From positions 104,280 to 122,651 of the forward strand of contig JBGAID010000021.1 in NCBI GenBank assembly GCA_044225865.1: a DNA stretch of 18,372 bases, given 5' to 3'. How positions within the stretch are numbered: position 1 is the stretch's first letter; each line of letters starts with the position of its first letter. The notes below the pieces were generated by a model. It was not told the origin of the DNA and made no database searches. It saw nothing but the letters and a program-made list of their open reading frames with translations. Position numbers and translations under genes: made by a program. This DNA is from Polyangiaceae bacterium (GTDB taxonomy: Bacteria; Myxococcota_A; Polyangia; Polyangiales; Polyangiaceae). Positions 16,005 to 17,775 of this stretch are shown one piece after another.

Positions 16005-16038
16005 GCCTCCGCCCGCGTCAGTCGGGCGCGGCAGAGGC
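16005..16038. terminator. Imperfect GC-rich hairpin spanning the convergent gene junction, a candidate bidirectional terminator with no U-tract.
   Basis: Structure: gcctc-cgcccg-[cgtcagt]-cgggcg-(cggca)-gaggc, i.e. a 6-bp inner stem plus a 5-bp outer stem. The two convergent stop codons (15999-16001 +, 16018-16020 -) are only 16 nt apart. Confidence 0.25.
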
Positions 16039-17775
16039 GAGCTCGATGAAGAGGTCCATGGGCCACCGCTTGCCCTTCGGCCCGCCGGGATCCTGGTGCG
16101 ACGGCAGCCGCTTCGGGTCCGAGGGGTAGAATCTGGACGTCGTCAGGTTGCGCTTGAACGCAAGGAGGCTCGCGTCGGTGACGACCGAATGGAGGGTGAT
16201 GCCCGGAGGCTCGCGCTCGAGCAGCTCCTCGGCGTCCAAGATGGGCGTCAAGGGTATCGACCATCGACGGCACAAGCGGCCCACGAATGGAGCGGCGCGC
16301 TCGAGGACGGGCCGGCCCTCCTTCTCCCAATTCGTCGGCGGGGCGACCTTCTCGCCCGCTTTGTTGAGCTTTGGTCCACCCCTGCCGACGAGCTCGAGCT
16401 GGATCCCAAGGGCATTGGCGCCTGGCGCCGCCCACGCCACCGACGGCTCCTCGACGCATTGAACGATCTGGTCCGGTCCGATGACGTAGTGGGACGAGCT
16501 CTGGCCCTTTTGCGTCTTCGTTTGGTTGGCGAAGAATGTCGCGACCCTTCTCGCCATTCCGGGCACGATGTCGTTCTCGGTGCTGTGGAGGATGGCCCAC
16601 GAGACCGCCTTCCGCGAAGCCTTCGTGAAGTTCGTCGCGGGGATCCAAAGGTCTACCCCCGCCTCGAGGGGCGGGGCTGCCTCGTCTGGGTCGGGCGCCG
16701 AGGCGCGGCCGATCTCCCGCTGCTGCTCGGTGACGGCCCCCGTGGGCGGAAACCCATGGGACTCTTGCCACGCCCTCGTGGCGGCCTCTGTCTTGGGACC
16801 GAACGTGCCCGCCGCGTCCGGCGCGATTCCGATGATGCGCTGCCACTCCTTGACGTCTTCGCCGACGTGACCTCGCCGGAGAACGACGACCTCGCCGCGC
16901 GCGCGGGGCCCGACCGCGCTGACGACCGCTCGGTGATTCGGCGGCGGCACGGCAGGCATCCGCGCCCCGGGCAGGACGCCCTCGTGCGAGAGGTGCTGCG
17001 CGAGCGCGGGGTCGCGGAGCACCGCATCGATGGTGGAGGCCTGGCCGCTCACCCGGCAGGCCGCGCGCACCAGCCTTGCTTTCTGCGAGTAGTCCTCGTG
17101 GTCATGGTCGTGAGCCATCTTGAACGGCTGCACGACCCAGAGCTCGCCGTCGCTCGCGAAGGTGACGGCCTTGAAATTCGCCGGATCGCCAACACGGGTG
17201 TAGCGCCGCAAGGCGCTCAGCGTCGGGACGTGCCATCCATAGTTCGTCGCCGCCTTCGGCCGCTGGAAGATGCCCCTGCTGATCGCCCAATCCTTCCCGG
17301 CGCCAGCGACCAGCCCTTGGCGCCCAGCGACGGCCTGCTCGACGGCGTTGTGATGGGCGAGGTACGCGGCCGGTGACCTGTCGTCGACCCGCTGGGGCCT
17401 CGGCGCGAGGCGCACCTCTGCGTGCCGCCAGATGAGGTCACAGATCTTCCCCGTCGGGAGGACACAGTCGAGCAGATCGGCAATCTGCTGCTGGACCCAC
17501 GCGGAGACGGGGATCCGCACGCTGTCGCTCTCGTCTCCGACGCGCAGCGCATCGGCGCTCACCTCGATCTCGACCGGCCCCGACTGCAATGTCACCCAAT
17601 CGACCCTCGCATGTCCGTCGCGCACGGCGTCGAGCACGGCCTCGATCCGAGCCGCCCCCGGCGCTCGCGGAAGCGAGAGCAACCATTCGGATCCCTTCAC
17701 CGCCCACCTCCCCCGATCGACAGAGACCGCGCTGAACGATGCGCTCGCGGCCCCTACCCACGCGCTCGATACCAA
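16018..17775 (-). CDS. Multidomain peptidoglycan hydrolase, 585 aa: unknown ~285-aa N-terminal domain + PG_binding_1 + N-acetylmuramoyl-L-alanine amidase (amidase_2/PGRP-type).
   Basis: PG_binding_1: 'VVVLRRGHVGEDVKEWQRIIGIAPDAAGTFGPKTEAATRAWQESHGFPPTGAVTEQ'. Amidase_2: 'AILHSTEND...SSHYVIGPDQIVQCVEEPSVAWAAPGANALGIQLELVG...GITLHS'. The start is uncertain. The ORF track uses TTG at 17773-17775, the frame closes at a stop at 17794-17796, and there is no in-frame ATG for ~220 codons. Confidence 0.8.
   Translation of the reverse strand: MVSSAWVGAASASFSAVSVDRGRWAVKGSEWLLSLPRAPGAARIEAVLDAVRDGHARVDWVTLQSGPVEIEVSADALRVGDESDSVRIPVSAWVQQQIADLLDCVLPTGKICDLIWRHAEVRLAPRPQRVDDRSPAAYLAHHNAVEQAVAGRQGLVAGAGKDWAISRGIFQRPKAATNYGWHVPTLSALRRYTRVGDPANFKAVTFASDGELWVVQPFKMAHDHDHEDYSQKARLVRAACRVSGQASTIDAVLRDPALAQHLSHEGVLPGARMPAVPPPNHRAVVSAVGPRARGEVVVLRRGHVGEDVKEWQRIIGIAPDAAGTFGPKTEAATRAWQESHGFPPTGAVTEQQREIGRASAPDPDEAAPPLEAGVDLWIPATNFTKASRKAVSWAILHSTENDIVPGMARRVATFFANQTKTQKGQSSSHYVIGPDQIVQCVEEPSVAWAAPGANALGIQLELVGRGGPKLNKAGEKVAPPTNWEKEGRPVLERAAPFVGRLCRRWSIPLTPILDAEELLEREPPGITLHSVVTDASLLAFKRNLTTSRFYPSDPKRLPSHQDPGGPKGKRWPMDLFIELASAAPD
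16156..16623 (-). other. Amidase_2 (MurNAc-L-Ala amidase) catalytic domain (aa ~385-540).
   Basis: A Zn-ligand His in 'ILHSTE', the 'HYVIG.DQIVQ.V....AW' core and the 'LGIQLELVG' motif are present. Confidence 0.7.
16726..16890 (-). other. PG_binding_1 domain (aa ~296-350).
   Basis: Matches the Lx2Gx2GxxVxxLQxxL...DGxFGxxTxxAVxxFQ consensus. Confidence 0.7.

Follow-up and report, generated by a model that had tools for sequence, protein, structure and literature searches.

The exit of Afp/PVC-type particles from the cells that produce them is poorly defined. In the closest described systems, the tailocins and Afp, lysis cassettes lie beside the particle genes, the upstream cassette of Afp comprising an endopeptidase, a holin and a lysozyme, and those of R-type pyocins and tailocins being holin-lysin-spanin sets (PMC10598620; PMC12961389). 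Peptidoglycan-directed domains are enriched in the operons of extracellular contractile injection systems (eCIS), PG_binding_1 with an odds ratio of 8.5 ('shell') and Amidase_2 with one of 3.2 ('cloud') (PMC8213781, supplementary file 13). The same work described EAT10, an eCIS-associated peptidoglycan-hydrolase toxin, and a Leeuwenhoekiella gene, MED217_08565, which encodes PG_binding_1 with DUF3380 and lies beside a DUF4157 gene (PMC8213781). In this study, we examined a stretch of 18,372 nucleotides from a Polyangiaceae bacterium (assembly GCA_044225865.1, contig JBGAID010000021.1, positions 104,280 to 122,651), hereafter the window, which holds the 3′ half of an eCIS locus on the plus strand and, tail-to-tail with its last gene, a peptidoglycan hydrolase gene on the minus strand. 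The hydrolase has three modules: an N-terminal domain outside all curated families, here called X, a central PG_binding_1 domain and a C-terminal Amidase_2 domain. It is very probably a phage-derived enzyme of the endolysin type. The full proposal, that this phage-type, three-module hydrolase degrades the envelope with X as well and thereby frees eCIS particles, stands in our judgement at slightly less than an even chance.

Both recognised modules exceed their Pfam cut-offs, in agreement with the initial annotation of this DNA. Amidase_2 (PF01510) scored 46.3 bits against a cut-off of 26 (E=6.7e-12; residues 389-511 in the numbering of that annotation, which counts from an upstream TTG), and PHROG endolysin families match the same part of the protein, down to E=3e-14. 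PG_binding_1 (PF01471) scored 27.9 bits against a cut-off of 23 (residues 320-353 in the same numbering), the match spanning only profile positions 21-54 of 57; a local hidden Markov model (HMM) built from family members gave 69.5 bits over residues 275-329, where residues are counted, as everywhere below, from the GTG at 17700. A search with the window amidase as a single sequence matched no solved amidase. Only a profile reached them, made from the window protein aligned with six homologues in which X and Amidase_2 are both present (three of the seven proteins also have PG_binding_1): it found XlyA of the Bacillus subtilis PBSX prophage (3hmb) and the amidase 9htu at E=5e-5 to 4e-4. Among solved sequences these two come nearest to the C-terminal domain, though the similarity is only distant. 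In the alignment with 3hmb and 9htu, the first His, the Glu of 'igiE', the second His and a T-H-Q-D-P motif (S-H-Q-D-P in the window protein) correspond. Across the seven proteins H372, E375, E436, H504, H535 and D537-P-G are invariant, of which H372, H504 and D537 are the inferred zinc ligands, E436 occupies the position of the catalytic Glu and H535 belongs to the S-H-x-D-P-G motif. The window Amidase_2 differs from the solved enzymes by two insertions of its own (about residues 441-454 and 511-531); because of the second, the Pfam match ends at profile position 114 of 131, and the last motif was placed through the alignment to homologues. With zinc and catalytic residues intact, the domain looks active and would be predicted to cut the bond between N-acetylmuramic acid and L-alanine, while PG_binding_1 would hold the enzyme on peptidoglycan.

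The open reading frame (ORF) that had been annotated on the minus strand, 16018..17775, is present and encodes 585 residues counted from TTG. Its proposed start at that TTG did not hold, however, and the coding sequence most likely begins at GTG 17700 and encodes 560 residues. This GTG is preceded, with a 6-nt spacer, by the Shine-Dalgarno sequence GGGGGAGG; the N-terminus read from it, MKGSEWLLSLP, lines up with those of many homologues (MKGSEIAQLLP, MKGSEFIATL and others); and a public gene call (P0010) is exactly this protein, 100% identical. The GC content at codon positions 1, 2 and 3 points the same way, being 0.70/0.51/0.86 in the hydrolase gene, a pattern that the eCIS genes share, and 0.56/0.72/0.80, without a coding pattern, in the 75-nt leader between TTG and GTG. 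No hydrophobic segment was found anywhere in the 560 residues, so the protein has neither signal peptide nor membrane anchor, the former as already proposed. Like phage endolysins it combines muralytic domains with the lack of a secretion signal, and its N-terminus is a folded part of X. A cytoplasmic hydrolase of this kind would reach the wall only after a breach of the inner membrane and, having no export signal, would act as an enzyme of lysis from within.

Modular endolysins with two catalytic domains and one wall-binding domain are exemplified by LysK (CHAP-Amidase_2-SH3b) and lambdaSa2, in which central binding repeats separate two catalytic domains. The window protein resembles them in lacking a signal peptide, in joining Amidase_2 and a peptidoglycan-binding domain to a further N-terminal module, and in having relatives encoded in the lysis regions of phages and prophages. 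Unlike theirs, its N-terminal module is an uncurated domain with a lectin/FGE-like fold and not CHAP, M23 or a glycosidase; its binding module is central, and the window contains no holin, spanin or phage. The architecture is not unique. X-PG_binding_1-Amidase_2 is the commonest multidomain form of the family by local HMMs (18 collected sequences, the window protein included), and it recurs, as does X-Amidase_2, on viral contigs and in a Sorangium prophage. A 508-residue protein on an IMG/VR viral contig (L056) aligns end to end with the window protein (36% identity, E=4e-79) and has its modules in the same order, of which Pfam recognises Amidase_2 only; membrane-protein and lipoprotein-like genes lie upstream of it. 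In the prophage of Sorangium sp. So ce375, X-Amidase_2, here with no PG_binding_1, is found between an integrase and a Mu-type portal gene and is followed by a membrane protein, and on a phage-like contig of 36-38 kb X-PG_binding_1-Amidase_2 is flanked by genes with weak M23 and M15 matches. A lysis cassette with a holin, which the window lacks, accompanies relatives of the hydrolase.

Domain X, the first ~250 residues, has no Pfam, NCBIfam or PHROG match. Among 37 diverse members of its family no Pfam family was matched consistently and no PHROG at all, and none of the 37 matched Lectin_C or FGE-sulfatase (PF03781), even at E<=1. Matches to CATASP and DUF3576 were weak and each confined to a single member, and a match to PP2A in sequence and profile searches of the PDB had E=1.5; we rejected all three as chance. 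The family is nonetheless a big one: an exhaustive profile search retrieved 3,331 cluster representatives when the limit was E<=1e-3, and 1,000 when it was E<=1e-30. A word-indexed search retrieved 8 relatives only, and tblastn against 50,697 phage records a single match, in an unannotated 485-kb uncultured phage. The domain had been described as novel, unassigned and 285 residues long: the absence of a curated match stands, but from the GTG its length is ~250 residues, and with so many representatives 'novel' applies only in the sense of 'not curated'.

The predicted structure of X resembles the C-type lectin/FGE-sulfatase fold in three dimensions. Fold matches include the FGE-like domains of OvoA, EgtB and SenA, the C-terminal domain of Lcl, PorK and pFGE, and further intimin/invasin, Mtd/TvpA and PvdO. 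Compared with members of this superfamily (the C-terminal tip of Bd2740, the Lcl C-terminal domain, intimin, Mtd/TvpA, FGE, the C-terminal domain of EgtB/OvoA, PvdO and PorK), X has no sequence relationship, other conserved residues and another genomic setting, that of lysis genes. To our knowledge, none of these relatives is a cell-wall cleaver. In the 37-sequence alignment R62, T83, D88, K136, W138, G155, H197, D203, Y204 and S205 are invariant, and R18, W35, D50, L52, Q71, D75, A94, P100, G135, N153, Q191, H201, Q206, G241 and R247 are at least 90% conserved. Conservation of these residues extends to 59 multidomain members, the polar ones being equally invariant in standalone and fused forms. 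The stretch first noted as His-rich, FKMAHDHDHEDY, is a conserved H-x3-H-x-D-Y-S-Q motif containing H197, H201, D203 and Y204, whereas H199 is not conserved. All three motifs that the initial annotation had quoted are present. In NYGWHVP, which includes N153 and G155, other alignments of the family show an invariant Y154 and at least 90% conservation of W156, but the HH of YLAHHNAVEQ is kept only among close relatives. The possible metal site that had been suggested finds a fitting candidate in the conserved H-x3-H-x-D, which could be a metal or ligand site. A housekeeping regulator of cell-division amidases is a poor description of the domain, which has no such Pfam or NCBIfam match and has a lectin/FGE-like fold; an AMIN domain and LytM-type activators (EnvC/NlpD) were likewise rejected for lack of a match. 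No described endolysin domain with a lectin or FGE fold was found in the literature, and LysZ (bioRxiv 10.1101/2025.06.24.661397) is a membrane protein with no link to X that we could see.

Four contexts of X can be distinguished: by itself in phage lysis cassettes, with PG_binding_1 only, with a C-terminal membrane anchor, and fused to hydrolases. The 169 collected members comprise 78 with X alone, 71 with a C-terminal and 12 with an N-terminal extension. The partners in the 59 sampled multidomain members are Amidase_2 (29), PG_binding_1 (21), CHAP (7), PG_binding_3 (5), Peptidase_M15_4 (4), GH25 (3), Amidase_3 (2), Rv2525c-like (2) and VanY (1), and seven proteins of 294-348 residues consist of X and PG_binding_1 only, as confirmed by Pfam. 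A common gene order is found on three large phage-like contigs of 29-180 kb (L028, L029, L030), its upstream part being repeated on an IMG/VR viral contig (L031). In these four, standalone X follows tail-fibre-sized genes, and 5′ of it lie, directly, a holin-like protein of 113-132 residues with two to three transmembrane helices and a protein of 107-126 residues with an N-terminal hydrophobic stretch and a charged tail; no other recognised lysin was detected near X. A protein with a signal peptide and a C-terminal transmembrane helix comes after X in L029 and L030, and a divergent replication module then follows in L028-L030. A further scan yielded 26 IMG/VR viral contigs with X, several of them 200-437 kb long; L056 belongs to this set. 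Standalone X in Chondromyces, Polyangium and a Polyangiaceae metagenome-assembled genome has ordinary chromosomal surroundings, with CsbD, Ser/Thr kinase, SOD, PCMT, 2OG oxygenase and CinA as neighbours.

Single C-terminal membrane helices after a linker end 21 of the 169 X proteins (e.g. P0006, P0007, P0046, P0053, P0167), an unusual feature, since lysis proteins are seldom tail-anchored; in three, a signal or anchor is present at the N-terminus. Five IMG/VR contigs of 36-40% GC and 21-211 kb (L043, L044, L045, L048, L051), several of which belong to large or jumbo phages, have conserved proteins of 320-340 residues flanking standalone X and lack small membrane proteins in its vicinity; a recognisable lysis cassette thus does not surround X in every case. 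In an integrase/ParA island (L001, 301-3055), an SLT-like protein of 281 residues with a GLMQ motif, standalone X (255 residues) and a patatin-like phospholipase are encoded by three genes that overlap or abut and look like an envelope-attacking set. A genome of 67% GC (L137, 608-8954; GCA_964269625.1, CAXWPC010000009.1) carries a VgrG gene, a DcrB/DUF1795-type gene and the gene of a 971-residue protein that opens with a prePAAR-like AARHADP motif and continues into hydrophobic stretches; ~1.8 kb further downstream is the gene of an X-PG_binding_1 protein (41% identity with the window protein over 326 residues), a possible connection between X and a type VI secretion effector island.

These settings and residues bear on whether X cleaves or binds. 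We incline to the former, giving somewhat more than half of the weight to X as a second envelope-degrading module, an enzyme and not a mere anchor, much of the rest to a lectin-like binder and the remainder to something else. An envelope-degrading X, which would add a second activity next to Amidase_2, is suggested by its standing alone in the lysin slot, by the proteins that pair it with PG_binding_1 only, and by its invariant polar residues. Against a catalytic X speak the fold class, which is mostly a binding fold, and the recognised catalytic domain that most multidomain members also carry; no catalytic precedent for X is known to us. The lysin-slot contigs, moreover, share one gene order, so they are probably one lineage. 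In the less favoured yet substantial alternative, X would have no catalytic function: as a lectin-like module it would recognise a glycan of the cell wall or envelope and would target or regulate the hydrolase to which it is attached, and where X stands alone the protein would be an accessory subunit of a lysin encoded nearby; this would be compatible with any role of the gene. Among the conserved residues W, Y, N, Q and D are frequent, as they are in sugar-binding sites, an X gene overlaps a PG_binding_1-M15_4 lysin gene (L008), another lies among M23 and glucosaminidase genes (L002), and the known catalytic domains of most multidomain members fit a binder as well. A binder accords less well with the 78 members in which X is alone and the 21 with a C-terminal anchor, with the seven X-PG_binding_1 proteins, which would be two binding modules and no enzyme, and with an X that occupies the lysin slot between holin-like and membrane-protein genes. 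Further, H-x3-H-x-D together with invariant D88 and K136 looks more like an active site, and those members of the fold that are of FGE type are enzymes or form part of one. A bolder version of the catalytic reading we consider unlikely: that X represents a class of lysis enzyme not recognised so far, in which a C-type-lectin/FGE-like scaffold carries an H-x3-H-x-D centre and the substrate is peptidoglycan or some other glycopolymer of the envelope; that this class is widespread among uncultured phages, jumbo phages included, and has no entry in any curated family library; and that an X-lysin was recruited here to free eCIS particles.

With respect to the eCIS, the hydrolase gene converges on the DUF4157 gene, as had been noted, with 16 nt between the two stop codons, an adjacency that is present in five independent assemblies, all with the same sequence. 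Phage-tail-like particles of this kind are thought to be released by lysis of the producer. As in the lysis cassettes of Afp and tailocins, a hydrolase without an export signal is encoded directly beside the particle genes; unlike them, the window has a single gene, which is convergent with the operon and not conserved in related eCIS loci. As with EAT10, pesticin and PG_binding_1 proteins with or without DUF3380 (PMC8213781), the gene lies beside a DUF4157 gene at the 3′ end of an eCIS; in contrast to these, the window hydrolase has another catalytic domain and is on the opposite strand, and a payload role for it is hypothetical. Precedents of a general kind thus exist for both roles that the initial annotation had considered undescribed, the release lysin and the wall-targeting effector (PMC12961389; PMC10598620; PMC8213781). 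For comparison we used 80 metagenomic loci whose ATPase is 42-68% identical to that of the window, 33 of them with at least 5 kb downstream of the ATPase gene. In two of the 80 loci, PG_binding_1 is fused into DUF4157 proteins (L113, 11305-12795; L074, 15376-21327), and some relatives of the window eCIS may target bacterial cell walls.

Because the gene is tail-to-tail with the last eCIS gene, particle release is the most likely role: the hydrolase would lyse the producer and free assembled eCIS particles, as the lysins of tailocins and Afp do, and a phage-derived enzyme may have been co-opted to this end. We advance this tentatively, below an even chance, since what connects the hydrolase to the eCIS is adjacency only. 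The release lysin first suggested for this gene is thus plausible, with Afp and tailocins as precedent, but it is not a conserved eCIS accessory. Several observations weigh against it. Among the 80 related loci, of which 33 extend at least 5 kb downstream of the ATPase gene, X was found in none and an Amidase_2-like ORF in one (L134, 12637-13482, with a C-terminal extension and ~1.3 kb downstream of the ATPase gene). None of 13 genome loci that carry X, the closest being from Polyangiaceae at 35-42% identity, has the eCIS genes of the window within 10 kb, and no orthologue of the whole protein was found among the GTDB species representatives. The gene is on the opposite strand and hence outside the eCIS operon and not co-transcribed with it; neither a holin-like ORF within the ~670 nt upstream (by ORF list and GC pattern) nor a spanin beside the hydrolase was seen, and at the far end of the upstream stretch one public assembly has a short partial gene diverging from it. 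Finally, some eCIS loci have no lysis cassette at all (PMC10598620). Several of these points would suit a neighbour with no part in the eCIS, an orphan lysin from a phage or prophage or an autolysin for the cell's own wall turnover or developmental lysis, as would the long upstream region of its own, the lack of a holin, and relatives in phages, prophages or unrelated Polyangiaceae chromosomal settings. We nevertheless find such a neighbour doubtful, and a less probable account than release, for the window has no other phage genes, GC and codon-position pattern are identical to those of the eCIS genes, the tail-to-tail packing is tight in all five assemblies, and both Pfam domains are enriched in eCIS operons (PMC8213781). 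A second payload or accessory toxin that degrades the wall of bacterial prey from the periplasm, like EAT10 or the amidase effectors of type VI secretion systems, is improbable, although such an effector had been offered as the alternative in the initial annotation. It would fit the position at the 3′ end of the locus beside the DUF4157 gene, one of the criteria by which eCIS toxins have been selected (PMC8213781) and the only one that applies to the hydrolase, the PG_binding_1-DUF4157 fusions mentioned above, the X-PG_binding_1 gene near the VgrG-DcrB-prePAAR island, and the standalone X between SLT-like and patatin genes. Yet the gene is on the strand opposite the operon, its product has no DUF4157 domain and no disordered N-terminal leader (the predicted local distance difference test score, pLDDT, is 86-97 over the first 100 residues of the model, an ordered N-terminus), no candidate immunity gene lies on either side, the closest full-length relatives are phage lysins, and a contractile particle delivers into the cytoplasm or across the envelope and not obviously into the periplasm.

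For particle exit, the single lysin of phage type whose gene meets the last eCIS gene tail-to-tail offers a testable candidate, and on present evidence an X-type lysin is not a general eCIS feature. The X family deserves follow-up more than the eCIS story does: it numbers more than 3,000 cluster representatives, is encoded in phage lysis cassettes and occurs in fusions with nearly all classes of wall hydrolase, and Pfam, PHROGs, NCBIfam and the PDB do not contain it. A catalytic X would be a new fold among muralytic domains and would explain phages without a recognisable endolysin; as a lectin-like binder, X would offer a new wall-targeting module for lysin engineering.

Table 1. Features of the 18,372-nt window in order of position, with modules of the hydrolase listed after its coding sequence
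Feature	Position	Strand	Description
Large Baseplate_J-containing protein	89-4363	+	eCIS gene
Protein without Pfam match, 437 aa	4392-5705	+	Between baseplate gene and 1319-aa gene
Protein without Pfam match, 1319 aa	5709-9668	+	
Contractile injection system tape-measure protein	9665-11332	+	
AAA ATPase	~11326 (start)	+	453 aa by public gene calls; longest ORF 10870-12687
eCIS_core (DUF4157) protein, 1105 aa	12684..16001	+	PF13699, E=5e-31; last gene of eCIS operon
Hydrolase, most likely coding sequence	16018..17700	-	560 aa; GTG start 17700-17698, stop codon 16018-16020
Amidase_2 catalytic domain (aa ~355-553)	16042..16638	-	Pfam PF01510, invariant columns, alignments
PG_binding_1 (aa ~275-329)	16714..16878	-	Pfam PF01471 and local HMM
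Domain X (aa 1 to ~250)	16951..17700	-	Uncurated family, predicted C-type-lectin/FGE-sulfatase-like fold
In-frame TTG-to-GTG leader	17701..17775	-	Probably untranslated; holds GGGGGAGG at 17714-17707
Upstream region	17776..18372	.	No coding signal, no holin-like ORF; hairpin 18068-18137

The remainder of the window is made up of eCIS genes (Table 1), with a GC content of 61-74% throughout, and the hydrolase gene is the one large gene on the minus strand. The 437-residue protein has as its sole match a chance-level one to an NCBIfam lectin-like bacteriocin (E=0.048). The longest ORF of the ATPase (605 residues, from GTG 10870) overlaps the tape-measure gene by ~460 nt, while the 453-residue public call does so by a few bases. 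In the DUF4157 protein, eCIS_core covers residues 87-162 and includes the motif HELAH; the C-terminal region of more than 900 residues is rich in Gly, Ala and Val, has no Pfam match and is presumably the toxin or payload part.

Upstream of the hydrolase, the ~670 nt from 17701 to 18372 carry no coding signal, no frame there having a GC bias at the third codon position. Hairpins are all that this region contains; the largest, at 18068-18137, has 24-nt arms that are 96% complementary and a 22-nt loop, and lies ~370-440 nt upstream of the hydrolase start; Rfam matches were sub-threshold, miRNA-like and due to the hairpin only, and we therefore rejected a riboswitch (e.g. ydaO). No tRNA was found upstream. 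There was no sigma-70-like promoter match, and the terminator count was not above that of shuffled controls. A smaller palindrome, CCGGAAGCGGACTTCCGG, at about 18010-18040, lies near 18030, the exact end point of four independent Logan contigs; a mobile-element boundary at this position was rejected, the contig ends being a palindrome-related assembly break. On the plus strand, a terminator-like stem with a T-rich tail (16337-16357) lies ~340 nt past the DUF4157 stop and within the coding sequence of the hydrolase. Should the eCIS transcript end there, the convergent transcripts would overlap and could interfere with each other.

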